A stretch of 57,292 nt of DNA, the filler included, from Jimgerdemannia flammicorona (lineage: Eukaryota), in NCBI GenBank assembly GCA_003990765.1. It is 3 parts of 3 records of this genome, joined end to end, with 100 filler letters (N's around TTAATTAATTAA, not from the genome) between each part and the next. Parts side by side here need not be neighbours in the genome. Positions count along the whole stretch, not along the records: positions 19,135 to 38,166 come from RBNJ01002045.1; 2 more parts are not named here. One strand, given 5' to 3'. Shown in pieces: positions 2,219-53,748 of the stretch. Made by a program: the position numbers and the translations under genes. How positions within the stretch are numbered: the first letter of the stretch is position 1; every line of letters begins with the position of its first letter. The notes beneath the pieces were generated by a model. That model worked only from the letters and a program-made list of their open reading frames with translations. It was not told where the DNA came from and made no database searches.

Positions 2219-4017
2219 TGTGTGATGCAAAAGCCTTTTGGCTTTACCAAGCATCACGGTAATCGAATTAAATATTATTTTATTTTTATTACATCCTTGA
2301 AATAAAGTATATCCTGACTTGTGATTTTCAATGCATACGTGATCTTTCCTTGTGGGCTATTTCATGTGGTCTTTTCTTCGCTCTTATGTTGTCTTTTCTT
2401 TTTAAAATAATGTATAAGTATAAATCCCCTTCAGTTAATTATATTTTAATAATTTTCTGTCAACGCCAGCAAACCAAAGCAAAGCTCGATGCATCGAACC
2501 ATAGGCTCAACCTGATGACAAATAATACCTCGGAGGATCCTTTAGCTTTCTTTAACAATTAGTTAACCATAGTTTTTGACTATTGTGTGGAGTTGGCTGC
2601 ACTTAGCCGATTCAATCCATCCGAAGACAGATTAGTGTTGCGCCAAATATCTTGGGTGATGATGAAATGAAGAAACTAAAAAGAGGTCGGGTTGTGGAGA
2701 GTGTCTGCTTAGTAAAGGCGAAAGGGAAACCTCTTGCACACCTAATTATGACATGTTCCGTTTCACTGTTACTCCCAAATCAGTTGATTTGGAAGAATCC
2801 ATCCCCTTCTTCTGCTCGGTTCGCTTACGATATCCACTATCCCAAGTCGGTCGAACAAGATGGACGCGAATTTGGAACGGAGCATAAGAGCGATTGTGAA
2901 CGTGCATTTGTTGAAAACTAAGCTATCACATCCAGTTAACACCCACACGTGAATTACCCTCGTCGTGCGCCCAATTTAATGACATCTGCCATAATTGGTT
3001 ATTAACCCTAAGTCGTCAAGTATTTTTTCCGGCAGGCCCATTCGAATATTGCATCTCTCGGCTGAGCGGCGATCGTAGGATCCGATAATCGCAATTGGTC
3101 CTCGGATTATCTGACGTTGGTACCCTCCTCCGTATCTCTGCGTCTCGAATATTGAGGGGGAAGGCTGCGGAATCCAGCACATAAAGATGAAGTTTTATTT
3201 ATATCGTTCCGCGACATCTGATTCTCGTGCACACGTTACATGTCTGCAAGGTCACACCAACCGTCTGGTCTGGCGGCCGCGCACGGGGACCCGATCCAAA
3301 CTAGCAAGGACTTCCATGCATCAGGATCAGATCGCGCACGGCCCGCCGTAGTCAGGTCAATCTTGATCGCCTGTATATCACTGTCTCATATTTATTTCCC
3401 CGGCTTCCAGCTGTCCCACCGCCGCTATGGCAACCAACTTGAAAACATGCCCTCCATTTCCCAAAATCCCGCCTTAGATAATCCCATCACGCGTCCCTTC
3501 GCCAAGATTGGGGGGAGATGTGGCCCTCTGGGTTATCGTATGGCCTTTGCGGCACCCAAGGGTATATATATATGCGGCCATCCCATTTTCCGTGTTGCAG
3601 GGAACGTTCTGGTGGGAACGCCGATCAGGGAAATATGGTCTGTCCGAACGGGAATATTTAATGCGCGTCGCACCGTGATTCTATAAAGCGTCCAGGTCGC
3701 GCCGACTGGAGTTTGCTCAGACTGTGCGCGAGACAGATTCGTATCGATTGCAGAAGCCTTGGAATTATATATACTTAGCCTTATATCTTAAGCAAAAAAA
3801 AAAAAAAGAGCTTCAATTTCCAGGTAATTATATTAGCTATTTCTAGAGGGAGATTGATCGTAAAATTATATGTTCGAGAGAGGTATATTCCGTCATACTG
3901 ACCATTTTCCCCTCTAATTTTCACAGCTCCCTACAATAGTATTTAGCATATATACAACCCTCAAGCCCTCCTTACGCCTTCACGACCTCCCTTCCCCTAT
4001 CCCCACCCCCCTAAGCC

Positions 4018-4449
4018 ATGATCATCACCCTCCGCACCATCAGCTCCTCCCCGCTCCTTCTCCTCTCCGTCCTCCTCCTTTCGACTCTCCTCACCTCCGC
4101 CACCCCAACCCCCAAGAACCAAAAGCGCGGACTCCCGACCAACCCGGATGAAATGACGGTTGAGCTCTTTGCCAAAACAGGCTTCTCCAAGCCCCTAGCT
4201 TCGCTCTCGGGCCCGCCCGCCCAAGGCCCGCGCATCTGCGTCCACGAGGCTAATTTCACCGTCGCCTCCGTCAAAGCTCAGCGCACAACCCGCTGGAAAC
4301 TCTACAAGGGGCACTACTGCCAGGGACCCGTTGCCCTCACCAGTGTCGGATCTAACAAGAATATTGGCGCGGACATGCCCTTCCACTCGTATAGCATCGA
4401 GTACGTCGTCCCCAGTACAATCGTCGATCAGTCGAAAAAGCGCAGGTGA
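4018..4449 (+). CDS. Small secreted protein (143 aa) with a beta/gamma-crystallin (Greek key)-like mature domain
   Basis: Leu-rich signal peptide, Kex2-like NQKR site, then two Greek-key-like motifs (ELFAKTGFS..VASVK; WKLYKGHYCQG..HSYSI). Upstream TATAAA near 3682 and a likely 5'UTR intron about 3824-3926. The fold call is by eye. Confidence 0.75.
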   Translation: MIITLRTISSSPLLLLSVLLLSTLLTSATPTPKNQKRGLPTNPDEMTVELFAKTGFSKPLASLSGPPAQGPRICVHEANFTVASVKAQRTTRWKLYKGHYCQGPVALTSVGSNKNIGADMPFHSYSIEYVVPSTIVDQSKKRR

Positions 4450-5758
4450 AAGGCGTCACGTTTCCCTCAACCATAACCACGCACAACACAACCCAAACGG
4501 CTGGCCGGGCTCTGCACGAAATGCTGGGCATTCCAGTTCAAGTTTCATATTGCTCAAGCCTTTTGCGGCCAGGGAAAACAATCCTCGTCCTGTGGGTGGG
4601 TTCCGCTTTAGTACCCAATTATGTTAAAACACACAAGTCGATCGAGTAGATGTAGATGTTCGCTTCCTGTCAAGATAGACGTAAAATCCAAGATTTCCAA
4701 GATCCTCATGTACAATACTACTTAGTCTAATTCTAGTAATTCTAGTAATTCTAGTAATCAACGAACCTACAGAATCCTTATGCCAGGGAAAAATAATAAT
4801 CAGCGATAAAATGAAAAAAAAAAAAAAAATTAAAAAATTCAGGGCTTCTCATTTCACACATAATTACCTTCCCATTCATTCGACCCTGTGACAATTTCGT
4901 ACGCGACCCACCTCGGAAATTTCCAAATCGGCCACTCGGAAACCCATGCGGTTGCTTAGTTGCCGTCCGTCGAACGTTACCCGGCGGACGAACCGAACGG
5001 CCGCAATTTGAGGCCGCATCACACGGTCCGGAACAAAGAATCCATAATCCTGTAAATGGATTTTCGTCGCCGAGAATCGTACAAATTTTCTTTTCAAAGC
5101 AATTTTTGCACACCCAAGTTCATGTGCGACGCCCGTGTGGAATATCCACCGCCGAGTTTTCCGAAATCTTGTCGCTCACGAGGGCTCTAGTTTTTCCGAG
5201 TGAAGTAGGCTCTATGTCGTCGAATTAGTGGCTTTTCATTCGTATTCTATTTTATCATGAAGCAAAGCTTATAACGTGGCTATGTAAAATGTGTGATTGG
5301 TATCGGAAGGTGAGGGGTTTGCTTTACGGAGGTATACTTGATACAAAGATACAATTAATGCACGAACAAAACTTTTTCTACGGAAATGATATTTTGATGA
5401 CGGCGGAATTGGGACGGAACTTAAAATACACGGACCTAAGGAGGACCGTGCAACACGATCCTGAAAATGATGTGTCCACGCAAACATTATTAGCGACGGC
5501 GATCAATTATGCCATCGGGAGATATTTATCCGAGCGCTTATTGAAGAAGAACGCGCCGGCATTTTTCGTGTCTGATGTCGGCGCAAACGAAATGTCACGG
5601 GGGAATGACAATGATATGGTCGTCGGCGTGCAAATGACGTCGAAAACCGGCATGGGTAACTCGTAGAATCTAATAATTGAGCTCTAGTTTCTCGTGGGCC
5701 CACCGACGTGTCCTGCGCCGAACGCCAGCACGGGAGCATTTTGTCCTTGCAAGCGAGT

Positions 5759-26419: not shown

Positions 26420-27030
26420 AGGATACCAAGAGTATCAATCCCAAAGAAATCAGAATCCATGTAACAGTTTCTGTCTAAGACCATGTCCAGGCAGAGCCTG
26501 TTGACAGTCATTCCTTCGACCTTCAAGATATCCAAAAAAAGGCTATCCATCGCCGTCAATGACTTCACTGTAAAGCCCAAGTCAGCGGATCTCAGAAAAT
26601 ACGGCAAAGATTTGTTCTGGGCCCTCATTTCGCAACATGAGTCCAGTCCCGCCAGGCGGCTGCTGCAGGATATGTTACCACCTCACCCAAAGAGTAGGGT
26701 CCTGCTCGAGCTCAACGGTGACCACGACCTCGACGTTATTCCCTGGGAATACGCATGGGGTAACAATGGGTATCTGGTCCATCAATGCATGTTCGCACGC
26801 GTGCACAAACCGAAGGTGCCTCAACCACCAAAACTTCCCGTCCCCATCATCCCACCAGACGATCCCAACGCCAGATCTGCATCTAGGCGATCAATTTCAG
26901 ACACTATTGAGTATGAGAAAAACAGACAAGCAGTATTATTGGAGCGTGTGTTCCCGCCAACCGTCGAGCGAATGGGCGTGTTGCTTATGAACAAGCCTGG
27001 GATGGCCACCGTACTTCATTTCATGGACAC
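26420..27030 (+). pseudogene. CHAT-domain (caspase/HetF-like) protease pseudogene fragment
   Basis: LRKYGKDLFWALI…RVLLELNGDHDLDVIPWEYA…FAR…VLHF match CHAT motifs. At about 27020, CAT TTC ATG GAC AC restores HFMGH with one added G. Another probable frameshift in the A-run near 26535. No downstream catalytic Cys motif seen. Confidence 0.65.
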
Positions 27031-28659
27031 TGTATTTGTGTTCTCTCTTCACCGAGGTTGGCGGCACTATAGCAATGTGGCTCATAGCTTGGCATTGAGC
27101 TTTATATAATCCAAGGCACGAGTTTGGTGACGCATCCCATTTAAGGTTGTGGAACGATGATGTTGACCGAGGTCCGTCACTCTACGCATGCTGAATGGTT
27201 CTACGCATACTCTCGAGGGATACGTGTGGGCTTATGCGTGGGCTTACGCGTGGGCTTACGCATGGACTTAAACGGAAACCCTTATGCATTTCGAAGTATT
27301 GGTATAGGAAATTTTGGAACGAGTTACCCAAGGAATTAGCGTAGCACCATACTAGTGAACCATGTGACAAATTTTGGTGGAACATCAGCAGCGATTGGAT
27401 ATGTTTAACTTCATGGACGAATTCAGCCGTGAAGCCTAAAACGAATCAAAGTCCATCTGCTACCCGTGGCTGATCGTAGCGGCCGGGGTGCCATCTGCAC
27501 CATGTGTAAATTTTGGCCAGGTTTAGATTAGCATGAGCAACTCCCGGGTCTGTTGGAGTTTGGCAACAACTCCACGACGAAGAGGACAGTGAAGGAGTGC
27601 AATCGCTTCAATGTGGTTGTATTTCCGTCATCGGTAGGAGGTCAGGAAGTCGGAGGCGGCGAGCGGAAGTCAGTATTTTGCAATATTCGACATACAATCG
27701 AACGTTTCCAACGTAGTTAATACAATTGAGAGTTGTTTCCAGTATAAATATTTGAATCCACGCTTTTCGTCAACGCCCTTCATGGCTTCCGCGAAAAAAA
27801 AAAGTTGGGGGACGCCTGTCTCGACATCTTGTTCGTACCGCAGCCGGAGCCATGCCTGGCCTATCCTGGGTTCCGCCCAATAAATTTCACAGATTTCAGG
27901 AGCTTGCCGAAAGCAGGTTTCCAATTTTTACCAGTATTGTACGAGGTGGCCGCAATTGTTGGCAGTTAATCATCACATATTCGTTGGTTACAGGATGTTG
28001 TGACCAAAACAATCTATTGTGGGGATGGTGATTGGTATACAGCTTTGACATACGGGGAACATAGTATTCTGAGAGTCAAACCACGCTATTGGTCGATGTC
28101 GGACTTTGTCAGGCTGTAGAAGACGCAAATTCCGAAAAATGCGTCCACGGTCGGATGACATATATTCCTCCAGAGATCTTTGAGAGAGAGCAGTACTGCT
28201 ATGGCAGCTAATGATCGGTGTCCCCCCACAAGGCGAGGCATCGATGCCTTCGAGAGGAGTAATCCTTAGTGCGCCAACAGCATTTAATAATATCTCAAGT
28301 CGATCTCAACCGGCAATCAAACGATCCTGAAGTCCGCCATCAGTTATTAGAATGGGCTTGTTTTATCGAAATTCTTTTCTCCCAGCATATACAAATCATC
28401 AAATTTTAGAAAGGCCTTCAATTATGCCTACCGTTTTCACCCAAGATGCAATTGTATGACTGGCCACCCATCAGCAAGAGACGTTTTCGAATTCATGGAA
28501 GCAAATTTGCACTCAAACAAATTACCAGATAGTACCCTTGTGGCAATCAAATCCAGGTCAGTAGCATGACAGGTCGCAGTCATCTCTGCTCACACTATCC
28601 GTAGATTTATATCTTGTTTAACTTTTTTTTTTAGAGTTGAAATTTATTATATTTATAAA

Positions 28660-31828: not shown

Positions 31829-34800
31829 ATGTCCTCCAACGAACTTCCAACCCCTTCACTTGACGAAATCAAGTCCTGGGATGAACACGGAGTCTGTGAG
31901 CACTTTCGACACCCTCTTCTCCGATTGAAACCCGACCATATAGCCATCTTGCGTGCTCAGGAAACAGATGGAGAGGCACTCATTTTACTCACCAAAAATG
32001 ACCTATTGAGACTACCATATAATTTACCAAGAGGGCCCGTGAAGAAAATTATGAACGAGATTTCCCGATTGAAAAGTGACTATCGTAGAGGGTCATAAAT
32101 ATATCGACGGTCGAGAACATTTTAATGCATTCGCTGGCTGAAACGAGAATATTGCTTTTTTTGATCTCACCAGGAACAGGCTGTCAACAAACATCTACGG
32201 CTACGGAAGGTGTGCGATTTTTCATTTATTGTCTCGACGCAACATACAACTATGTCATCCGGGATCATATTAGAACATGCCTTTCTAACTATTTGGCAGC
32301 CATTTCGCGAAGCACCTATGAAGAACGAATTAAGAACGTTAAAATCGAAATTGAACTGGTGACAAAGAATATCAAATCGACGGCCGACAAGAAAGAGAAA
32401 GATCGACTTTGCAAAGAACGATCAGGACTTCGCGAAAAAGAGCGCCTATCCCTCGCGCTCCAGCTACAAGGTAAGAGGATTATATGTAGTTAGTTTATTT
32501 CAGAAAATTCACCGAAATCCCGCGAGCTTTTGTGGTGACTAATATATACTTTCTCATCCTAGCTCCATCTTCTAATCTGGTGTCGGTTAGTAGTAGTCGA
32601 CATTTTGTGTTGTCGGATTCGCTTGATACAATGTTACCAAACTGTCTTGATCCCCCATTTTTTTTTTGTTTTCTACATATATATAGATCATACAAGACAT
32701 AAAGAACGAAATGGGTGACATAAAGATCGACACTAAAAGTATCCTCAGCAACCTCGACGAACTTCACGACAAGGTTGACAGTCTCCCCAAGCTTATGCTT
32801 GATCTTCATGAAGATACATTCCCCCGACTCTTCTTCATCTTTCCCGAAGATGGTCATTGGTGGGAGCCATCGATTGACAACCTCTTCACGAAAAAATTCC
32901 GTCTATACTTTCTCTGCGAACACGAAACCGTCGAAAACGGCAGCACGAAGAAACAGTTCCATCTGGCATTTCATGACGGCTACCCTGTCGTCCAACCACG
33001 CGAGGTATACTATTTTGATGGTCGATGTGGCATACGCTCCAGCTATCACAATACGGTTGCTAAATGGATCTCTACTTTAGTTTGTAGCTAAATATGGGCC
33101 ATACATACGTATGGTATGTCGTTTTTCTGAGCTTGAGCATCCGCACTCTCTGTGCAGGTTATCTAACATTTCCCTTGCAAAACAGATCATGCCCTGTCTA
33201 ATTCTGGCCGTACTCTTGGGAGGGCGCCTATTGGAATGCGTGCCTGCAGTCGGGAAAGCGGCAGCAGAGGTCCTACGGGCTGGCGGTGACCTTCCTTCAG
33301 TATCAGAATCTGCGATGTTTACTGACCGCGAACTTGAGTTCTGCGCGCAGACTGAGAAGGTTTTTATAACGGTTGTCTCTAACCTCGAGGCTACTGACAA
33401 CCAGGTCAAGAGATACACCGCCGATACTCCATCGTTGGTTCAGCCTCAGGGAAGAGCGCCAGGACTGATAGAAAGACCTGATCTGCGTGGACTCCAAGGT
33501 GCAGCGATACATTGATTTTTCTGTTCAAGTGTTCATGCGCCAATTTTTATATATATTTATTCACGATTTCTTTTGAAATTTTGGTTAATAGCTTATCTTG
33601 AAGGCTTGGATAACGCCAATCGGCTTGGGAATCTGCAGCGCGTGCTTCGTCCTGGGGAAAACGGTAGAGTGGCTGTGCGATGGGTGTGCAAGAATCACGC
33701 CGCGGAATGGCAGACGACAAGCGCTCTTCAGAGTCTTCATACAGTCATCGACAGCAGTTCCATAGATGGCAATGTCACGTTGGATGACGAGACTTGGGAG
33801 CTGACGTTCGTATCATTTACCTAACTTTAAAATACAACACGTGCCTTTAAATCTGCGATGTTTTCGTACTCAATGCTGATTTATTTCAATATCAGACTAA
33901 GGGGATTATCAAGAGGATATTTGCATACATTTCGAAATTCGGTATCGCGTGCGCTGTCTAGTGTCCCTTTGCGAAAAATCTGGTAATTAGTTTTGACTTT
34001 CACCTTTCTTTGTTTGTCTAGAATGATTAATGAGGAATCAAATTACAGTTTTGTAGCTTGTGAAAAGGCTCATTCAGCAGATATAGAAGTTCTTATTACC
34101 ACTGTGACCACCCTTGAAAATCTTATGTAAGTTATTTATTAATATCTTTATTTGATAAACTTAATGTAATAATAGATAATATATATCTTACTATTTAAAT
34201 ACTTATTTAGACTAAAGCAAATGAAGAATATACAGTATGATTACTTTTTATTGATTTTTTTTATTTAATAGTAATAATCTTTATAATTATATTTATTAAT
34301 ATAAAATCAACTTTATCTATCTATAGCATAAAAAATATTATTCAAAAATGTCTTACACTTAGAGAATTCGAATTTACAGGTACATCATAACAATCACAAC
34401 ATTTTTGTGCAGTAATCACATCTTACATTGAAGACTTTCATCTAGAGAAATTTTATATGAGCTTGGAAGAAGCTGTCTAAAGAGAATAATTATAGTGGAT
34501 GAAGTTGTGCAAATGAAGATAAACCTTCAATACTTGAAAACATATAAAAATTAAACTACATCTTTTTATCATTTTCTAACTATCAGCTCTATGTAACTTT
34601 TTTTTGTTTGTCTCTATAGATAGCCACATCAATGATGAGGGAGCCAGTGCAATAGCTGAAGCACTGAAAACGAACAAGAGTCTGAAAAACTTGGATCTAT
34701 GCGGTACGTAGGAATGGCGCGCGTTACATTGGTTTTTTTTTTTTTTGTTATTGCATTCATCTGTTCAGCGTTTGAGCTGATAGCAGCTGCACATGCATTT

Positions 34801-37800
34801 TACGTATTCCTTCCTACGTAGGGAATGGCATCGGTAGTCAGGGAGCCAGCGCACTAGCTGAAGCACTGAAAATGAACACTAACCTGCAAACCCTGGATCT
34901 ATGCAGTGTGTATAATGAAGCACATTATATGATTGCACTCAGCTGTTTCGTATTCCAGCTGATAGCCGCGCGTTGTATTCCACATGTTCCTCGGTAGGAA
35001 ATCGCGTTGGCGATCAGGGAGCCAGCATACTAGCCGAAGTACTGAAAACGAATACGAGCCTGCAAACCCTGAACCTACAAGGTATGTAGAAATGAAGCAC
35101 GTTAAATTTCCTGCATTGATTTGTTTAGCATTCCAGCTGGCAACCACGTATATGCATTGCATATATTTCTCCATAGGCAATCGCATTGGTGAGAAGGGAA
35201 CCAGTGCACTAGCTGTAGCCCTGAAAACGAACACGAGCCTGCAAACGTTGGATCTAAAATGTAAGAATGAAGTGCATTGCATTTTTGATTCACCTGTTAG
35301 TGTTCTGGATGACAGCCACCAATATACCTTTATGAGTTTCTCCGCAGACAACAACATTGGCGCAAATGGAGCGATTGTACTAGCCGAAGCAATGATAACG
35401 ACCAGAAGCCTGCAAAACCTGGATCTATCTGGCATGTAGAACTGAAGCACGTTACAACCCGGCATTCATCTGTTTAATATATCGGCTGACATCCACGATA
35501 TGAATTTCCGTAGGCAAGAGCATTTGCGATCAAGGAGCCCGCGCACTAGCTGAAGCACTGAAAACGAAGACGAGCTTGCAAAACCTGGATCTAACATGTA
35601 GGAATGAAGCGCATCACAATTTTTTTTTTTTTTTTTTTTTTGGCATTCATCCGCCAAGTGTTCTAGCTAACAGCCATGCATATAAATTCGCGTGTTCCTC
35701 AATAGACAATAGCATCGGCGATCTGGGAGCCAGCGCACTAGCCGAGGCGCTGAAAACGAACACGATCCTGCAAAACCTGTATCTACGTGGTATGCAGGAA
35801 TGATGCTCGTTACAACATTTTTTGATTCGTCCGTTTAGTGTTCCGGCTGACAGCCGCGCGTATGCATATATTTCGTGCGTTCCTCTGTAGGGAATGGCAT
35901 TGGCGTTAAGGGAGTCAGCGCACTAGCCGAAGCATTGGCAATGAACACAAACCTGCAAACCCTAGATCTACGCAGTATGAAGAATGAAGCGTATTATATT
36001 TTTGTATTTCATTTTTTTGATGTTGTAGCTGAAACGCCCGCGTATACACGCAATTTGTTCCTCTGTAGACAATGGTATTTGCGAGAAGGGAGCCAGCGCA
36101 CTAGGCGAAGCACTGACAACGAACATGAGCTTACAAAATCTGGATCTATGCGGTATATAGGAATGCAGCGCGTTACGTTTTGAATTCATATATCTAGTGT
36201 TCTTGCTGAAAACTATGGATGGGCACGCATTTTATGTGTTCCTCTGTAGAGAATGGTATTGGCGAGGAAGGAGCCATCGCGCTAGCCGACGCGCTGAAAA
36301 CGAATACGGCCCTGCAAGACCTGAACTTATATTGTACGTAGGAAGCATTTTTAGTGTTCGTCTGTTTAGTGTTCTGACAACCACGCGCGTACATCCCATG
36401 CATTTCTTTGTAGTAAACGGTGTCGGCAGGAAGGGAGCCGTCGCTCTAGCCGACGCGCTGAAAACTAACACGGCCCTGCAAAACCTGAACTTAGTCGGTA
36501 CGTAGGAACGAAGCACGTCGCAATTTTTTGCGTTCATCTGTTTAGTGTTCCTACTGACAACTACGCGCGTACATCCCATGCGTTCCTCTGTAGACAACGG
36601 CGTCGGCGAGAAGGGAGCCGTCGCACTAGCCGACGCGCTGAAAACGAACATGGCTCTGCAAAACCTGAACCTAGAAAGTACGTAGGAACGAAGCGCGTCT
36701 TTTTTTTTTTTTCGATCATCTTTTTAGTGTTCCAGCTGACAACCACGTGGGTACATCCCGTGCGTTCCTCTGAAGACAACCGTGTCGGCAATAAGGGAGC
36801 CGTTGCACTAGCCGACGCGCTGAAAACGAATACGGCCCTGCAAAACCTGAACCTAGAATGTACGTAGGAACAAAGTGCGTCGCATCTTTTTGCGTTCATC
36901 TGTTTAGTGTTCTGGCTGACAACCACCCGCCTACATCCGTGCGTTCCTCCGTAGACAACGGGGTCGGTGAGAAGGGAGCCGTTGCACTAGCTGATGCGCT
37001 GAAAACGAACACGGTCATGCAAAACTTGAACCTATACTGTACGTAGGAGCGAAACGCGTCGCATTATTTTGCGTTCATTTTTTTGCTGACAACCACGCGC
37101 GTATACATCTCGTGCGTTCCTCCCTAGTGAACGGTGTTGGCGATACGGGAGCCGTCGCACTAGCTGACGGGCTGAAAACGAACACGGCCCTGCAAAACCT
37201 GAACCTAGAATGTACGTAGGAACGAAGCGCGTCGCATGTTTTTGCGTTCATCTGTTTAGTGTTCCGGCTGACAGCCACACGCGTATATACATTCCGTGCG
37301 TTCCTCTGTAGTGAACAGGGTCGGCGATAATGGAGCCGTTGCACTAGCCGACGCTTTGAAAAAGAACACGGCCCTGCAAAACCTGAACCTACATTGTACG
37401 TAGGAATGAAGTGCGTCACATTTCCCTGTGTCTATCTGTTTAGTGTCCCTGCTGACAACCACACACGTATATCCCGTGCGTTCCTGTGTAGCCAACAGTG
37501 TCGGCGATTCGGGAGCCGTCGCACTAGCCTGCGCGCTGAAAATTAACACGGCCCTTCAAAACCTGAACCTATATTGTACGTAGGAACGAAGCACGTCATA
37601 TTATTTTTGCTTTCATCTGTTTAGTGTTCCGGCTGACAACCACACGCGTACATCCCATGCGCTCTTTGTAGTGAACGGTGTCGGCGAGAAGGGAGCCGTC
37701 GCACTAGCCGACGCGCTTAAAATGAACATAACCCTGCAAAACTTGAACCTAGTCGGTACGTAGGAACGAAGCACGTCGCATTTTTTTTTATTTTATTTTA

Positions 37801-38126
37801 TTTTTTTTTGCGTTCATCTGTTTAGTGTTCCAGTTGACAACCACGCACGCACATCCTCTGTAGCCAACAGTGTCGGCGAGAAGGGAGCTGTCGCACTAGC
37901 CGACGCGCTGAAAACAAACATGGCCCTACGAAACCTGAACCTATATTGTACGTAGGAACGAAGTGCGTCGTATTTTTTTGCGTTCATCTGTTTAGTGTTC
38001 CGGCTGAAAATCACGCGCGTACATCCCATGCGTTCCCTGTAGCCAACAGTGTCGGCGAGAAGGGAGCCGTCGCACTAGCCGACGCGCTGAAAACGAACAC
38101 AGCCCTGCAAAACCTGGACCTAGAAA
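31829..38126 (+). CDS. SAM - coiled coil - COR-like - RI-class LRR protein (3' end lost in the gap)
   Basis: SAM domain 31829-32075 (IKSWDEHGVCEHF…LRAQETDGEALILLTKNDL…LPRGPVKKI). Coiled-coil exon 32300-32470. PRLFFIFP…FRLYFLCEH…HLAFHDGY..VQPREFVAKYGPYI and LRGLQAYL…LGNLQRV…WVCKNH resemble the C-terminal COR region of ROCO-like proteins. Followed by 20 LRR exons. Small exons between about 33800 and 34600 are only partly resolved. Confidence 0.85.
34620..38126 (+). repeat. Tandem array of 20 exon+intron units (about 165-200 bp); each exon 84 nt = one 28-aa LRR, phase 1-1
   Basis: Exons: 34620-34703, 34822-34905, 34998-35081, 35177-35260, 35348-35431, 35514-35597, 35706-35789, 35891-35974, 36069-36152, 36250-36333, 36414-36497, 36594-36677, 36776-36859, 36955-37038, 37128-37211, 37312-37395, 37492-37575, 37672-37755, 37864-37947, 38043-38126. 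Consensus xNx(I/V)GxxGAxALA(E/D)ALKTNTxLQxL(D/N)Lx. No stops or indels. Introns share a CTGAC/CTGAT-type branch point. Confidence 0.97.
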
Positions 38127-38166: not shown

Positions 38167-38266
38167 NNNNNNNNNNNNNNNNNNNNNNNNNNNNNNNNNN
38201 NNNNNNNNNNTTAATTAATTAANNNNNNNNNNNNNNNNNNNNNNNNNNNNNNNNNNNNNNNNNNNN
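38167..38266. other. Scaffold gap (100 nt, true size unknown) with TTAATTAATTAA spacer
   Basis: N-run. The genes on both sides are truncated at it. Confidence 0.98.
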
Positions 38267-38368
38267 TTTTTTGACTCGAGCCATTCATTTTCTTATAGAA
38301 TGCGGTTATAATCGTAATTTGCCATTGCTCATCGGTACATTCAACCTTTCTCACACGTTGCCCGACAG

Positions 38369-41300
38369 ATTTACTTGAGCGAACACGCTTGGCGGGATCT
38401 CGAGGATAATTTACGAAATCAAGATAAGGACGAGCAGCGACGTGCTAAAGAAGAGAGAAAGAACGGAGACGGTACAGCAGCGCAGCCATCACTCTTAGAC
38501 CTTCAGTCATCACGACCGGGCTCCAATTTGCTTGTTCCGCCCATGGTTCCTGGCGGACCGTACGGCGATGAGCAACGCTCATTCTATTCCGAGGATGCGC
38601 GCTCTTTCTATTCCGAGGATGAATATTATCAAGAGGATCACTATAGTGGTGGTTACAATGATACAGAGTCCGCATATGGGTCAGAGGTGTTTGCACCCTC
38701 CGGAAGTACATTTCGCGAGCTGGAGATGCGTAAAATGCTCAACGGGGATTCGAAGGGTGATGGCGTGGAGGAAGAACCCGAGATACCACGCAAAACCACT
38801 CGCGGTCGCAAGCAATGGGTGGCCCTTACCTGGTTCTTAACCTGGTGGATCCCAGGTCCTTTCTTACGATGGTGTGGCGGTATGAAACGCCCTGACGTGC
38901 GAATGGCATGGCGTGAGAAGGTTGCACTTTGCTTTGTCATTTTGGCGCTCTCGGGAGTCGTTATCTTCTTTATCGCCGTCTTCGGAAAACTCATCTGCCC
39001 CTACCAAAACGTGTTTTCGTGGAACGAGCTTCAAGCCCACGACAAGAAAGATTATGCTTACACCGCCATCCGTGGCGAGGTGTTCGACCTTACCAATCTA
39101 GTGCCCGGGCACTGGCCTAATGAAGTCATTTCGACGAGCGCCCTTTTTGCGTACGCAGGCAAGGATTCCACCGTTCTATTCCCAATCCAGGTATCAGCAC
39201 TATGCGACGGTACCACGGGTTCGGTCGATGACGCGGTGACCCTTGACACCCATGTAAACCTGACAGATCCGAACGCCGCCTATCACGACTTCCGATATTT
39301 CACCTCCGATTACCGCCCCGACTGGTACTGGAACCAAATGGTGAAGATGCGCAAATTGTATCGCATTGGATTCATGGGTTACGACCCTAAAGACCTCCAG
39401 AACCAGGCCAAGACCAATATGGCGTCTAGTGGTATTTCAAACCCCAGCTGGGCTATATTGAACAATGACATATACGATCTCTCTGCTTACCTCGCGGGTG
39501 GCCTCATTCCTCGTGTCCCTACTGGTCAACAAGTTCCCGCTAATCTCAACATGAATTTTATGGATTCGCGAATCGTTGACCTTTTCAAAACATTCCCCTA
39601 TCAGGACATCACCAAGAGCTTCGAGGCGCTTAACCTTGATTCTATCCTCAAGGAGCGTCAACTTGTCTGCCTTCGTAATCTATTTTTCATTGGCAAAACA
39701 GACAATCGCAATTCGACCGTTTGCCAATTTTCGACATATTTGCTCCTCATTATATCAGTCATGTTATGCGCCGTCATCTTGTTCAAGTTTCTCGCAGCTC
39801 TACAACTCGGCGGACGTCGCGAACCCGAGGAGTACGACAAATTCATCATTTGTCAAGTACCTTGCTATACCGAAAGCGAGGAATCTCTCCGCAAGACCAT
39901 CGATTCACTCTCCGTGCTGCGCTATGATGACAAGCGAAAGCTGCTATTCCTCATTGCCGACGGCATGCTTATTGGTAGTGGCAATGATCGACCTACCCCC
40001 CGTATCGTCTTGGATATCTTGGGCGTAGACCCCAACGTCGATCCTGAACCTCTCAGCTTCGAATCACTTGGCGATGGCATGGCGCAACACAATATGGCCA
40101 AGGTGTACTCAGGCTTGTATGAATGCTCTGGTCACGTTGTTCCCTACATCGTCGTTGTCAAGGTCGGCAAACCCACCGAGCGCCAAAAACCGGGCAACCG
40201 AGGCAAGCGTGATTCTCAGATGATCTTGATGCGATTCCTCAACAAGGTGCATTTCAATAGTGAGATGACCCCGATGGAACTGGAGATTTTCCACCAGATC
40301 AAAAATGTCATCGGCGTTAATCCGAGTTTCTATGAATTTGTTCTCATGGTGGACGCCGATACGGAGATCATGCCCGATTCACTCAACCGTATGGTCTCGT
40401 GCTTCGTGCACGATGCGAAAATCATTGGCTTGTGTGGCGAGACCATGATTTCCAACGAAAAAGATACCTGGGTGACCATGATTCAAGTCTACGAGTATTA
40501 TATCTCGCATCATCTCGCGAAAGCGTTCGAATCACTTTTCGGCTCCGTCACCTGTTTGCCTGGGTGTTTCTGCATGTACCGGATCCGCTCCGCGACCAAG
40601 AACCAGCCGTTGCTCATCAGCAACCAGATGATCCAGGACTACTCGGAGAATATTGTTGAGACGCTACATATGAAGAATCTGTTGCATCTTGGCGAGGATC
40701 GCTATCTCACAACCTTGATCCTCAAGCATTTCCCGAACTATAAAACCAAGTTCACCCCTGATGCAGCTTGCAAGACGAATGCCCCCGATCGCTGGCCCGT
40801 CCTTTTGTCGCAACGCCGCCGTTGGATCAACTCAACCGTCCACAATCTTCTGGAGTTGATGTTTTTGCCGCAACTCTGTGGTTTCTGCTGCTTCTCGATG
40901 CGTTTTGTCGTCATTCTGGATCTTCTCGGTACCCTGGTGATGCCCGCCATCGTGGTCTACCTCGGCTTTCTCATCTACAGTATCGCCGTCTCCCCGACCG
41001 CAATCCCGTTTTGGTCTGTTATTACTCTCGCGGGTGTATATGGCCTGCAGGCGCTCATTTTTATCATCCGTCGAAAGTGGGAGCATGTTGGCTGGATGAT
41101 TGTTTATCTCCTCGCGATTCCCGTTTTCTCCTTTGCGATTCCGCTCTACTCCTTCTGGCATTTCGATGATTTCTCGTGGGGTAACACTCGTGTGGTCGTT
41201 GGCGAAAAAGGCAAGAAATTACACTTGGCGTCAGATGAGGGCAAGTTTGATCCTAAATCCATCCCCCGGAAGAAGTGGACTGACTACGAGCAAGAGCTCT

Positions 41301-41968
41301 GGGAAGTGGGCTCGCACGAATCTCACGACTCCCGTGGCACAGCGCACACCGGCTATACACATGAATCCTATCGTAGCCACCGGAGTCTTGCACCCGCCGG
41401 CGCTGGTCCTGGCTCAACTGCTGGTTCTATCTACAATGACGCCGCGAGCTATTACAGCGGCAATGGAGGAAACAGTGGCCGCTCCCGCTCCAGGTCTCCC
41501 GCACCAATGGCGGCATACGACAACCAGAGCATCCGCCAGCAATCTTTCACGAACGTACCGATAGTTTCGGACCCTCGCATGTCCCGACCGTATTCGGACA
41601 TGATGTCGCAACGCGGCTCGGTGTTCATGAACCGCACGCCTTCGGAGATTGACCTTGCATATGCTAACATGCCGCCGGGCATGGGAGGTGGTTCGCGAGC
41701 CGGAAGTATGATGCCCCCTGGCGGATCTGTCATGGACGCATATTATGCATCGGGACCTGGGTCGTCGGCTTCCGGTGACGGGGCGATCTTGCCAACGGAC
41801 GAAGAAATATTGCAGGAGATTCGACGCATTTTGTCGACATCAGATCTCATGTCGATCACAAAGAAACAGGTTCGCGATGAGCTGTCTGCGTTCTTCGGTG
41901 TAGATATGAGCTCGCGCAGAGAGTTTGTCAATTCGTGCATAGAGCAGGTGTTGCAGGGAAAGCTCTGA
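38369..41968 (+). CDS. Chitin synthase, class V/VII (myosin-motor type), terminal exon
   Basis: Acceptor CAG|ATT at 38368/38369. IYLSEHAWRDLEDNLR resembles the end of the myosin-like domain. Also present: AWREK, cytochrome b5-like region, VPCYTES, PGNRGKRDSQ, VDADT, TCLPGCF, LGEDRYLT, SQRRRWINST and C-terminal DEK_C (EIRRILSTSDLMSITKKQVRDEL). Confidence 0.97.
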   Translation: MYLSEHAWRDLEDNLRNQDKDEQRRAKEERKNGDGTAAQPSLLDLQSSRPGSNLLVPPMVPGGPYGDEQRSFYSEDARSFYSEDEYYQEDHYSGGYNDTESAYGSEVFAPSGSTFRELEMRKMLNGDSKGDGVEEEPEIPRKTTRGRKQWVALTWFLTWWIPGPFLRWCGGMKRPDVRMAWREKVALCFVILALSGVVIFFIAVFGKLICPYQNVFSWNELQAHDKKDYAYTAIRGEVFDLTNLVPGHWPNEVISTSALFAYAGKDSTVLFPIQVSALCDGTTGSVDDAVTLDTHVNLTDPNAAYHDFRYFTSDYRPDWYWNQMVKMRKLYRIGFMGYDPKDLQNQAKTNMASSGISNPSWAILNNDIYDLSAYLAGGLIPRVPTGQQVPANLNMNFMDSRIVDLFKTFPYQDITKSFEALNLDSILKERQLVCLRNLFFIGKTDNRNSTVCQFSTYLLLIISVMLCAVILFKFLAALQLGGRREPEEYDKFIICQVPCYTESEESLRKTIDSLSVLRYDDKRKLLFLIADGMLIGSGNDRPTPRIVLDILGVDPNVDPEPLSFESLGDGMAQHNMAKVYSGLYECSGHVVPYIVVVKVGKPTERQKPGNRGKRDSQMILMRFLNKVHFNSEMTPMELEIFHQIKNVIGVNPSFYEFVLMVDADTEIMPDSLNRMVSCFVHDAKIIGLCGETMISNEKDTWVTMIQVYEYYISHHLAKAFESLFGSVTCLPGCFCMYRIRSATKNQPLLISNQMIQDYSENIVETLHMKNLLHLGEDRYLTTLILKHFPNYKTKFTPDAACKTNAPDRWPVLLSQRRRWINSTVHNLLELMFLPQLCGFCCFSMRFVVILDLLGTLVMPAIVVYLGFLIYSIAVSPTAIPFWSVITLAGVYGLQALIFIIRRKWEHVGWMIVYLLAIPVFSFAIPLYSFWHFDDFSWGNTRVVVGEKGKKLHLASDEGKFDPKSIPRKKWTDYEQELWEVGSHESHDSRGTAHTGYTHESYRSHRSLAPAGAGPGSTAGSIYNDAASYYSGNGGNSGRSRSRSPAPMAAYDNQSIRQQSFTNVPIVSDPRMSRPYSDMMSQRGSVFMNRTPSEIDLAYANMPPGMGGGSRAGSMMPPGGSVMDAYYASGPGSSASGDGAILPTDEEILQEIRRILSTSDLMSITKKQVRDELSAFFGVDMSSRREFVNSCIEQVLQGKL

Positions 41969-49249: not shown

Positions 49250-52200
49250 TATAAGAAATAAGGTCTCTCCTAAGGATGTCCTCACTACTCATGGTGCTTT
49301 GCCCAAGTACAAAGAAGAGTCCATGAAATCCTTGCTGTACAGACCTTACAAAATCCAGAACACAAGAAGGATAACCAAGATAGGAGGAACTCCACTAGGA
49401 TGAATGATCAAAGAAATGATCAAAGGAACCAGCAAAACCCCAGAGGACCAAGATCTCCTACTGAGAATAAAAAGAAGCAGCTCTGCAAAAAAGGATTATA
49501 CTTTATCTACAAGAAGGCAGAACACATCTCAGTCAAATGTCCTGAGAAGAGAAACAGATCAGGCAAACCCAGTAACTAGAATATTACTGTCATTGAAGAA
49601 GGTCCAAGAAAGAAGAACTCTGAGAATGTCATCAAAGTGCAGAAGATATAGTATAAGACTACCATTCCTACTAAGGTCTACTCTACTGATGCTGGGTATG
49701 ACCTCTACAGTAGCCAAGACCTCATTATTCCACCCAGTATCAATGCTACAGTGTGAACAGAGATTAGAATACAAGCTTCCAAAGGTACATATATCTGTCT
49801 TACCAAGTGAAGCAGCCTAGCCAAAGAATTCAATATTGGACTAGGAGGAGGAGTAGTTGACCAAGAATTTACTGGTGAAATCTATATCATCTTGCAAAAT
49901 TTTGGAGATACCTTATTTGAAGTCAAAATAGACCAAAGAATTGCTCAGACAATTATTAAAGAAATCTATCAAGATCTCACTATTGAAGAAGTTCCTGAGC
50001 TCTCCCAGACAGACTGTAGCAAGAAAGAATTTGGATCAATCAACAAATCTTCCAGTCAAAAGGTTATTACTATGAAGAAAGATGATGAAAACTGATATAA
50101 GAAAATTATAGACAGTTATGCACCATATGGATGATACTCTCATTTTATTGAATATACTGTATGGAATATATTGGTGAATGCCATACATGCCTCTCTAAAG
50201 TTTTCAAAATTCAATCTGAGAGATGCTAAGCCCAATAGACTGAGGAACCCAAACAAGACCACCCTCCTTGTGAAGGATGGAGAGAAACTGACTTTGAGGA
50301 GACTGATAGCAATTAGGACAATAATGAGGATGAAGAGCTCAATACCATCAAAAAGGAGGATAGTTGCATCAAGTTCATAGACCAAGTTCACAGACAGAAT
50401 ATCAATGTCTTGCTTGATAGTAGTGCTACTAGAAACTATATTAGCACCAAGACTGCCAAGAGAATTAGAACCTGAAGCAGACCAGCTACTGAGAAAAGGA
50501 ATATTACCTTTTGTGATAGTAAGACTGTACTATTGACCAAGATCTGTGAGGATCTCTTACTCAGGATTGGCAAATATTAAGAGAAGTTGGACTTCAGTAT
50601 TGTAGACCTCTCAGAATAAGATATTATCCTAGAAAAAGCCTGGTTGACCCAGCACAACTCAGATATCAACTAGAGGATCATGAGGTTAATCTGACCTATA
50701 AAGGCAGAAAGATCACCCTGATACCCCAGGAAGGTACCAACTATCACGAAATTGAAATCATCTCTGCCATCCAAATGAAGAGACTTTTCTGAAAAAAGGA
50801 AAACACCTACTTCATCTGTACTATACAAGAAGTTACTGAAGCTCTGAGTAGCCCAATCTTACCAGAAGCTCAAGAACTGTTTGAAGAATTCCAAGATATA
50901 TTCTAAGACCCTCAAGGACTTCCACTCAAGCACTAAATCCAACATGGAATTTATCTCATTCCAGGATCTAAATCCCCATACAAGAGTATCTATCAACTGG
51001 CCCAATCCAAACTCAAAACCCTCAAGAATGAGTTGACCAAACTATTGGCCCAAGGATATATTGAACCCAGCTGCTCTCTATTTGGAGCCCCCATTCTATT
51101 TATCAAGAAGAAGGATGGCTCTCTGCAAATATGTATTGACTATAGAGCTCTCAACAAGATCACCATCAAGAACCAGTGTGTCTTGCCTAGGATTGATGAG
51201 TTGCTACACCAGATCTTCAAGGCCAAGACCTTTTCACTACTAGACTTGTGAAATAGCTACTACCAGATTCTCATTAATGAGAAGGATATTGAAAAGACAG
51301 CTTTTTGAATGCAGTTTAGATACTACCAGTTTTAGGTCATACTCTTTGGTTTGACCAATATACCAGCAACATTCCAGTATCTGATGAATGATATCTTTGG
51401 ACCACTCCTCAACATCTGTATCCTTGTGTATATTGATGATATACTAATCTACAGTGAAACAATAGAGTTATACTACACTCACCTCAAACAGGTACTGACC
51501 CTTCTGTGAGAACATCAGCTCTATGTTAAGATAAGTACAAGTTCTATCAAGACTAGATTGAGTATCTGAGACTTATCATCTCTGCTGAAGGTATCAATAT
51601 AGACTCCTGAAAGATATCAGCTCTTAAGGATATTTCTATCTCTACTATCCTCAAGCTACTCCAGTACTTTCTGAGTATTGCCAATTACTACCAAAGGTTT
51701 ATTCAAGGATACTCTGCTATTGTAGTCTCACTGACTAGCCTAGCCTGCAAAGGAGTAAACATCAAGACTGAATAGACTCTCAAATGTACCCAGACTATGG
51801 ACCACCTCAAGAGACTTCTTACTGAGGCCCCAGTGCTAATTGCACCTGACCCTACTAGGCCATTCACTCTGACTACAGATGTCTCTGACATTGCTATTAG
51901 GGTAGTGCTCAGCCAAGAAGATCACCCAGTGGCTTACCTTTCCCAAAAGCTCAAGCCAGCTGAGACCCAGTATATCACCTATAAGAAGGAACTCCTGGCC
52001 ATTGTCACTGCACTCCAGGAATAACATCATTTCCTCTTAGAACAACTATTTGTAGTCTACACTGATTACTATGCTCTGTAGTACATTTACATACAGCCCA
52101 TACTGATCTACAGACAAGCCTGCTGGATGGAAATTATTGCCAACTTTAATATAGAAATCAAGTATATCCCAGGAAAAACCAACTGTATGGCTGATAGTTT

Positions 52201-53748
52201 CTCTAGATACATAGAAAACAAACTTGTCTTTATAGTTAAGATAATTGGAGACCTCACTCAAATGATCAAAGATAGCTATCAACAAGACAGCTCTCTGATG
52301 AAATTCCTTCAACTCTACCAAGACCCAGAGGCCGAGGTCCTAGAACCCATGAGACAAATGTCCAAGAGATTTACTTACCATAATAGACTCATCTATAGAG
52401 ACTATGACAGAGTGGTTATACCCAACAATGATACTCTGCAGCTCAAGATCATGCAAGAACTCCATAATGCTCCTACAGCAGAACATTTTGGTTTTGAAAA
52501 GACCTTCAATCTCCTCTTGAGAGAGTTCTACTGACCAAAAATAACCAGGATATCAAAGACTTTGTGGCCTCATATGAGATGTACTAAAGGTTCAAAAGTG
52601 ATAATAAGCTACCAGCAAGACTTCTACAACCTCTGCCTATCCCAAGTCACAACTGGGATTAGATTTCAATAGATTTTATTGTCCAGCTCTCCAAGACCAA
52701 AGCAGGATGAGATGCCATTGTGGTATTTGTGGACTACCTAAGCAAACAAGCCCATTTTGCACTCACCAAGACCACTACCACAGTATCAGAGACTGCTGAA
52801 ATCTTTCTCAATCAAGTATTTAGGCTATATGGCATATCTAGTACCATTATATCTGACTGAGATATAAAGTTTACAAGCAACTTCTGGAAGACATTCTTTT
52901 CTCTCCATAGAACCAAGCTGAAGTTCTCTACTGCCTACCACTCCCAGACTGATAGTCAAACTGAGTAAACTAATAGGACTCTCAAGCAGATGCTTAGCAT
53001 CTTTTGCTATTACAAGCAGAATGATTGAGACAAGTATCTAGCCCATGCTGAGCTTGTCTATAATAATAGCCAGCAAACCTCTACAAATAAGACTCTATTC
53101 TTTCTGAACCATGGTCAATACCCAAAGACCCCAAGCATTACTATAAAATCAGGAGTCCCAGCAGCCCAAGATCTGGCTAAGACTATTTCTGATCTTATCC
53201 AAATGACAAGAGATGCTCTCATAGAAGTACAGGACTATCAGACCAAGTATATAAACTTAAAGTGAAGAGAAGTCTCCTATAACATTGGTGACATAATCAT
53301 ACTTAGAATAGACCACTTCTACTCAGATACTCTGATACAATAACTAGCCAAAAAACTCTATGCTAAAAGAATTGGACTATACAAGATTGTGGAAAAAAGT
53401 AAAGTTAACTACAAGTTGCAACTTCCTTACAATATTCAAGTATACTCAGTATTCTATATCAGTCAATTGGTGGACTACTATGAGAACTCATTCCCTAAGC
53501 ATATAGTTCCACCACTACTCCCAATTAAGATTAATAATTACAAGGAATTTGAAATTGAGAAAGTACTTGACCACAAGGTCTGTAAATATCCCAAAACAGT
53601 CAAGCAGTTTTTTCTTATCAAGTGGAAGAGTTATCTCACCCACAATGCTACCTGGGAAAAGAAAGAAGCTCTGGAGAATATATATGAAGCCCTCTATGAC
53701 TACATGGAAATACTCACCCCTCAGCAAAGGAAGGAACTGCAGCTCTAA
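49250..53748 (+). mobile_element. Degenerate chromovirus (Ty3/gypsy): gag end/zinc knuckle - dUTPase - protease - RT - RNase H - integrase - chromodomain
   Basis: dUTPase about 49620-50040 (DAGYDLYS, *SSLA, GGVVDQEFTGEI, QRIAQ, EFGS). Protease VLLDSSAT about 50405. [26 protein letters not shown] and VYIDDILIYS. RNase H TTDVSD..VLSQ, YKKELLA. Integrase LLQPLPIP, AYHSQTDSQTE. Chromodomain FEIEKVLDHK…FLIKWKSY..NATWE. No LTR recognised. Confidence 0.95.

Follow-up and report, generated by a model that had tools for sequence, protein, structure and literature searches.

Every intron of an LRR array in the early-diverging fungus Jimgerdemannia flammicorona interrupts the same codon of the repeat. 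An earlier note on this DNA regarded the arrangement as junctional diversity, in which skipping or reshuffling of exons would create residues encoded by no single exon. The question raised by the locus is whether its variable residues are generated when exons are joined or in the genome itself. We analyzed it in the window, a stretch of 57,292 nucleotides (nts), filler included, in which three contig parts are joined end to end, and all positions given below count along it. The reading that we consider probable is genome-level diversification of an apparently intact SAM/coiled-coil/unnamed-domain/RI-type LRR gene, which would encode a constitutively spliced, variable non-self sensor.

Array structure and gene model

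The array lies on the plus strand (34620..38126) and is composed of 20 exons of 84 nts, each encoding a repeat of 28 residues, with 19 introns of 80-118 nts between them. The junctions had been placed in the codon just before the Asn of LxLxxN, with 1 nt from one exon and 2 nts from the next, and this is exact for all 19 introns, which are all in phase 1. Hereafter, we count the split codon as codon 28 and its unsplit neighbor as codon 27. The residues reported for the sequential junctions (G,R,G,Y,G,Y,G,N,E,L,D,N,Y,L,L,S,L,A,S) and for the preceding position (C,C,Q,K,S,T,R,R,C,Y,V,E,E,Y,E,H,Y,V,Y,E) were likewise reproduced exactly. The gene was modeled as follows.

31829..32075, plus strand: exon 1, with the start codon and a SAM domain that passes the Pfam cut-off for SAM_1 (E = 1.2e-5) and for SAM_2 (kept in paralogues)
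32174-32209, 32300-32470, 32563-32585, plus strand: three small exons for a linker and a probable coiled coil (open frame; 5 paralogues keep the splice sites)
32687-33004, 33081-33498, 33592-33805, plus strand: three exons, unnamed domain (common to Endogone and Mortierellaceae LRR proteins)
33896-33982, 34049-34126, 34211-34234, 34327-34379, plus strand: four small exons, putative degenerate LRR or cap ahead of the array (from paralogue alignment)
34620..36333, plus strand: LRR exons 1-10, 84 nts each, starting at 34620, 34822, 34998, 35177, 35348, 35514, 35706, 35891, 36069 and 36250
36414..38126, plus strand: LRR exons 11-20, starting at 36414, 36594, 36776, 36955, 37128, 37312, 37492, 37672, 37864 and 38043
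34703..38044, plus strand: 19 phase-1 junctions splitting codon 28, the residue ahead of the conserved Asn (exon enumeration)
38167..38266, no strand: contig join (N runs around a linker with stops in six frames); the contig ends here and the 3′ end of the gene lies outside the window

Because the array is cut by the contig end (N run from 38167), 20 is the minimum number of repeats. Exons 11-20 also form a tandem repeat with a period of ~180 and 10 copies. All 20 LRR exons have AG...GT/GC splice ends; the GC donor of exon 5 (35432-35433) is the only one among 301 clean exons of the family, and the AAG acceptor of exon 13 (36773-36775) the only one among 242 family junctions. Judged from these two sites, exons 13 and 5 would be the likeliest candidates for skipping.

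Upstream splice sites were taken from the alignment with five paralogues, and the gene model is a sequence prediction. Its 31 exons (11 upstream and 20 LRR exons) keep the frame open for 1116 codons to the contig end; the N-terminal model comprises 557 residues and the LRRs begin at residue 558. The coiled-coil segment (32174..32585) gave a weak HOOK coiled-coil match (E = 0.0013), under the Pfam cut-off. The unnamed domain is marked by the motifs PRLF..P, FRLYFLCE, H.A.H.GY, KYG.Y and V.WVC and shows 68% matches to Endogone proteins. It matches 17 long LRR proteins (E ≤ 6e-10), and all 10 that were looked up are from Mortierellaceae; in the J. flammicorona genome it has at least 55 matches on at least 48 contigs. 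A Pfam scan of this domain gave no match, and the Atlas matches, at most 0.81, were uninformative. A suspected likeness to the tail of bacterial ROCOs was abandoned when none of 34 prokaryotic candidates was confirmed. In metagenome contigs of 33-34% GC, intronless genes carry the domain (L043:3959-6019; L044:945-3482 and 3725-5671); their tails are only degenerate LRR-like and their neighbors cytochrome P450-like, and judging from these contigs the domain may extend beyond fungi.

A Pfam scan of the five larger N-terminal exon frames and of 6 full-length homologues found neither NACHT or NB-ARC nor Roc/COR, the 3′ end of the gene being beyond the contig. By domain content the gene appears to be neither an NLR nor a ROCO, though it may work like sensor repeats.

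Elsewhere in the window, an intronless frame of 1216 codons (38318-41968, plus strand), which by its motifs is a putative fungal chitin synthase, lies on the next contig and is unrelated to the array. A frame at 26465-27109 (plus strand) has a motif that we presume to be reminiscent of the region ahead of CHAT protease domains, and a Pfam scan of this frame gave no match. Fragments resembling LTR retrotransposon reverse transcriptase, integrase and chromodomain were seen by eye at 50937-53748.

The family in the genome and its relatives

A DNA search of the genome gave 199 matches, and 33 stretches on 32 contigs were taken from the 150 listed; together with the window they make a set of 34 arrays among the matches listed. 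The set holds 373 repeat matches, 301 clean and 72 not clean, so that about one-fifth of the family repeats are damaged or off-register. Among the 336 well-scoring repeats, 304 have AG..GT/GC at exactly the same 84-nt register; as in exon-modular LRR genes, the rule of the family is that each symmetric exon encodes a single repeat in the same register. The unnamed domain is contained in 17 of the 33 fetched stretches, and array length differs between paralogues of this single assembly. By sequence, the window gene belongs to a large Endogonales family with dozens of loci.

Several irregular members were observed. One LRR exon (L014:74-157, plus strand) is opposite in strand to its array and has a donor other than GT; L015, L030, L032, L033 and L034 contain candidate repeat exons shortened to 60-81 nts that are still in phase 1 at both ends; and a repeat with a two-codon insertion is common to L018 and L020. 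Two SAM exons per locus are found in L030, L033, L034 and L032, and in L032 one SAM is directly ahead of the array, after which comes a second gene head. The genome has both exon-per-repeat and intronless versions of the 28-residue LRR: L052 (contig C8027), L053, L054 and L055 are intronless open frames of 1451-2415 codons, and in L052-L054 the same LRR is found in tandem after a long N-terminal part with kinase-like motifs (by eye).

The database protein P0009, labelled Jimgerdemannia, contains ten exons identical in every letter to those of paralogue L012, with introns retained; its annotation misses the exon structure and is garbled by the retained introns. Pfam LRR_6 is strong in P0009 and in the homologues. 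The Mortierellaceae "RNI-like" hypothetical proteins have the same unnamed domain followed by the same 28-residue repeat; a metagenome scan for such homologues gave three loci, none with a tandem LRR array.

Position of the split codon in the solenoid

The 20 repeats fit the RI-class consensus LxxLxLxxNxI/LxxxGxxxLxxxL (28-29 residues), and the best PDB sequence match was rabbit NOD2 (E = 2.5e-14), with RI-like proteins also among the best. A structure model was available for the homologue P0052, which stands in for the spliced protein of the window. This model has pLDDT ~87-96 over residues 451-720 and forms a regular strand/helix solenoid, for which Foldseek returned NLRP14, RI and NOD2 at E ≤ 6e-14. 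In each repeat the strand spans positions 23-25, and residues 27, 28 and 2 are in the loop after it. The split codon was said to lie at the end of the concave β-strand and in the adjacent loop, and in the homologue model it is found right after the strand. These three residues are probably solvent-exposed, judging from the secondary structure, the 18 tolerated residue types and known LRR structures. The strand-plus-loop face of LRR proteins binds ligands. Such binding is stated for VLR and PGIP in the accessible part of one report (PMC3341825).

Codon variability and selection

Family entropy was 3.67 bits at codon 28 (18 residue types at 242 junctions), 3.66 at codon 27 and 2.94 at codon 2, and did not exceed 2.4 at any other position, which bears out the description of the split codon as hypervariable and makes it, with codon 27, one of the two positions that vary most. 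When 242 units centred on the junctions were placed on a tree, eight bases of these codons fell in the fastest class (~3.1), the six of codons 27 and 28 and the first two of codon 2 (site rates 3.0-3.1), compared with 1.1 for intron interiors, 0.9 for ten third positions and 1.5 for the third base of codon 2. The Asn codon (exon bases 3-5), between the fast codons, was slow (0.07-0.5), and codon 26 was at or below the background rate. Since a slow Asn codon lies amid fast ones, the rate pattern tracks the protein and not the distance from the splice site.

This pattern bears on the explanation that there is no selection for diversity, and that unconstrained positions lie in a splice-adjacent mutation hotspot. 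The fast bases do flank the intron, and single-codon IQ-TREE fits gave omega ~1 with long trees, although kappa was stuck at 1.000 and these fits are doubtful. However, a hotspot accounts poorly for an Asn codon and a codon 26 at or below background with a fast codon 2 beyond them, and the paralogue comparison described below is more damaging to it.

With a shared synonymous rate, omega was 3.1-5.8 at codons 27 and 28, 1.8-2.3 at codon 2 and at most 1 at the other 25 codons; the codon model used a coarse grid and fixed kappa, and recombination among repeats inflates such tree-based values. With per-codon synonymous rates the excess was weaker (p = 0.045, 0.13 and 0.063 on one tree; 0.13, 0.0009 and 0.0013 on the other). 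This mixed support arises because the synonymous rates at codons 27 and 28 are raised too (2.1-5 versus 1.2). The omega of a pooled IQ-TREE fit was 1.57 (2ΔlnL = 12.2), a value that recombination can inflate, and single-step synonymous fractions were mildly below neutral (0.15-0.21 versus 0.24-0.26). From these results we infer that selection is the likely cause of the variation.

The same positions vary where there is no junction. In 162 repeats from 18 homologues no positions vary more than 27 and 28, and both also rank among the most variable in the intronless frames of the same genome (43 repeats), the two longest intronless arrays showing a small excess over four-fold sites (0.50 and 0.59 versus 0.42). 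Judged by these controls, variability at codons 27 and 28 does not appear to require the junction.

Joins of non-adjacent exons

According to the earlier note, only exon 4 or 6 joined to exon 10 creates a stop, and we found just these 2 stops in 190 forward joins. The comparison with chance that it proposed had a less clear outcome: the count is indeed low, but not beyond chance, as permutation of exon order gave a mean of 8.5 stops (P = 0.069, or P = 0.126 with adjacent joins required to be open) and random sense codons a mean of 5.4 (P = 0.31). In the family, forward skips gave 60 stops in 1626 joins (3.7%) versus 85 in 2176 (3.9%) for backward and self joins. In the 24 arrays with at least 4 clean exons, the 60 skip-join stops compare with a permutation null of 58.7 ± 9.9 (P = 0.57), and single-exon skips gave 5 stops in 209. 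A designed "junction code" behind the low stop count was rejected on the permutation value in the window and the lack of family-wide depletion. The exon ends appear to be unshaped by selection for skip compatibility, a test that is weak if nonsense decay cheaply removes the ~4% of bad joins. For adjacent joins, 0 stops were found in 242 where ~10 were expected from the marginals, indicating that the sequential joins are the translated ones.

These counts bear directly on junctional diversity at the level of splicing, whereby regulated or stochastic skipping would yield many isoforms whose junction residues are encoded by none of the sequential joins. Every exon is symmetric, and 188 of the 190 forward joins are open. 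In the window, re-joining would make new residues, as had been claimed: at 96 of 171 skip joins the residue matches neither of the two native ones, and 50 of 171 produce a residue, or a stop, that occurs at no sequential junction. For human NLRP3 (PMC6642158) and brown-algal ROCOs (PMC11378527), the accessible parts of the reports document skipping of LRR exons; exon skipping is described as comparatively low in fungi (PMC6142364, accessible part). However, stop-forming skips are not depleted, the introns are short (family median 93 nts) with consensus-like donors, codon 27 is equally variable though unsplit, and intronless arrays vary at the same sites. The proposed mechanism thus finds no support even though the residues could be made, and we regard it as quite unlikely.

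Two regimes within one array

The two halves of the array differ in history. Exons 2-10 are collinear, exon for exon, with paralogues L015, L018, L020 and L022, and in the clean pairs compared the same residue is found at seven of junctions 2-9, junction 3 being D in L015. At matched positions, 35 of 296 variable bases and 50 of 366 four-fold sites differ between these exons and the paralogues (all pairs). Exons 11-20 are homogenised exon-plus-intron units that resemble one another and a pool of similar units at other loci, with 86-92% nucleotide identity to their best matches, and are divergent at codons 27, 28 and 2; 153 of 288 variable bases differ among them, compared with 57 of 364 four-fold sites (all pairs).

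For a distance-matched comparison, pairs were picked without the variable bases. At an intron distance of 0.11-0.12, the variable bases differed at 81 of 176 positions in 22 within-locus pairs versus 16 of 144 in 18 collinear between-locus pairs, and the four-fold sites of the same pairs at 25 of 223 and 17 of 181, respectively. Six non-collinear between-locus pairs behaved like tandem copies (20 of 48 variable bases). This contrast between tandem and collinear copies speaks for diversification that accompanies recent duplication or conversion, and neither constant reshuffling nor a mutation hotspot of a permanent kind fits it well. The hotspot explanation is largely refuted because collinear paralogues change the same bases at the neutral rate, and we consider it highly improbable. 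As read from these comparisons, exons 2-10 are positionally fixed and exons 11-20 homogenised and diversifying.

Recombination and the pairing of codon halves

Homogenisation that spares the specificity codons would give a similar picture: introns and scaffold are overwritten by conversion in short tracts, those over codons 27, 28 and 2 are counter-selected or shuffle them, and old variants persist with few new mutations needed. The raised synonymous rates at codons 27 and 28 would fit, as would the 26 of 91 minimum-spanning edges at codon 27 that are multi-step. In L012 and L019 linkage falls off with distance (near r2 P < 0.001 and 0.015), and mosaic units such as unit 13 of L012 occur. On the other hand, the differences at codon 28 are mostly single-step non-synonymous (84, versus 15 synonymous and 12 multi-step), homogenised arrays have no residue patterns common by position, and exons 10-19 of the window show no linkage decay (P = 0.97). 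We give this explanation only a small share of the probability.

Within arrays, the codon halves show 13 incompatibilities versus 14.7 ± 2.4 under free reassortment, and their mutual information gave P = 0.07 with stop avoidance allowed for. Codon halves may possibly re-pair in the genome, and recurrent mutation would give the same pattern. In the dynamic pool (55 units), segment distances correlate at 0.55-0.58 across the intron and at 0.12-0.36 within exons, which suggests that junctions often travel intact; in L012, a block of four units was duplicated with all but one of its four junction codons intact. The test of incompatibilities pointed weakly in the opposite direction, with 5 versus 4.2 expected across the intron and 2 versus 4.2 across the exon (P = 0.14). 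Linkage across introns was not lower than within exons.

One may consider, as an unlikely extension, that the intron in a ligand-contact codon is a combinatorial generator, in which crossovers within the near-identical introns (germline, or mitotic among coenocytic nuclei), and perhaps skipping, re-pair the halves, yield new binding residues in a single step and leave the scaffold untouched. If true, the fungus would have a repertoire of LRR receptors whose junctional diversity is genuine. New junction residues made by skipping or by intron crossovers would be a new route to receptor diversity, for which the present data carry no sign of selection.

Proposed model of diversification

In the reading that we prefer, diversification at the level of the genome, the gene would encode a cytoplasmic protein with SAM, a coiled coil, the unnamed domain and at least 20 RI-type LRRs, one per 84-nt exon. 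The solenoid would contact its ligand via the loop after each β-strand (codons 27, 28 and 2), and oligomerisation of the SAM/coiled-coil end would produce the signal. An ancestral exon-plus-intron unit, with its intron by chance in codon 28, may have been multiplied by unequal crossing-over and conversion, so that scaffold and introns were homogenised while selection held new duplicates apart at the three exposed residues. Where the array no longer turns over, as in exons 2-10, those residues would change at approximately the neutral rate. Its place in the variable codon would then make the intron a matter of inherited geometry, and crossovers within introns may add codon combinations as a by-product. 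The family would provide a large set of fast-diversifying LRR sensor candidates in a plant-associated, early-diverging soil fungus.

Comparison with known systems

Exon-per-LRR arrays are already known from human NOD/NLRC genes, brown algae and Tetrahymena, and homogenised hypervariable repeats from Podospora. A search of freely readable text found no literature that describes this fungal family or a split LRR codon with hypervariable residues; as far as that literature goes, three features are new: a family of SAM-LRR genes in fungi, a phase-1 border that falls within a diversifying codon, and the division into frozen and dynamic halves. The comparisons below refer to the accessible parts of the cited reports.

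Human NOD/NLRC genes (Hoss et al. 2019, PMC6642158) likewise have one 28-residue RI-type LRR per frame-preserving exon with a fixed border. There, however, the border is described as within the β-sheet, whereas in the present array it falls in the loop that follows the strand, in phase 1 and before the Asn; the figures of that report may bear on the exact position. The human genes have a NACHT, which the present gene lacks, whereas recent homogenisation of repeats and introns is found here; and exon skipping has been shown there, whereas the window array is known from DNA alone.

Brown-algal LRR-ROCO genes (Zambounis 2012, PMC3341825; Teng 2024, PMC11378527) share one LRR per exon, family expansion and, as candidate immune receptors, positively selected sites on the concave face. 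They differ in having 72-nt phase-2 exons, a Roc-COR GTPase and documented shuffling and splice variants, and their type I border follows NxLx, away from the selected sites, a position on which the supplements may bear. The opposite-strand exon of L014 resembles the inverted exons of Ectocarpus ROCO genes.

Tetrahymena LRR genes (Xiong et al. 2019, PMC6564038) also have tandem LRR exons of equal length and one intron phase, and that report names a split-codon "junction" amino acid and invokes unequal crossing-over. Unlike the present array, the exons are 90 bp in phase 2 in a ciliate, and the accessible text does not claim the junction residue as a hypervariable binding site. The Mortierellaceae "RNI-like" proteins share the unnamed domain, the 28-residue repeat and the same two most variable positions; their extreme N-termini differ, one has Sel1 repeats, and no SAM was found in the 6 that were Pfam-scanned. 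Compared with V(D)J and VLR junctional systems, in which somatic joining makes residues outside the germline order, there is here no selection signature for non-sequential joins, and codon halves are statistically independent within arrays.

The WD40 repeats of high-internal-conservation (HIC) type in Podospora HNWD/NLR genes (PMC13449251) are near-identical with a few hypervariable, diversifying positions, and are gained, lost and shuffled via unequal crossing-over. They are WD40 units in NACHT-based NLRs of known allorecognition function, and one exon per repeat is not described in the accessible text. The HIC pattern (repeats 80-100% identical, few hypervariable sites) is found in exons 11-20 and not in exons 2-10, and by this analogy the Podospora repeats would be the best model for the evolution of exons 11-20. 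With its 5′ half frozen while its 3′ half is being homogenised and diversified, this single gene offers a clean natural test of how repeat receptors gain specificity.
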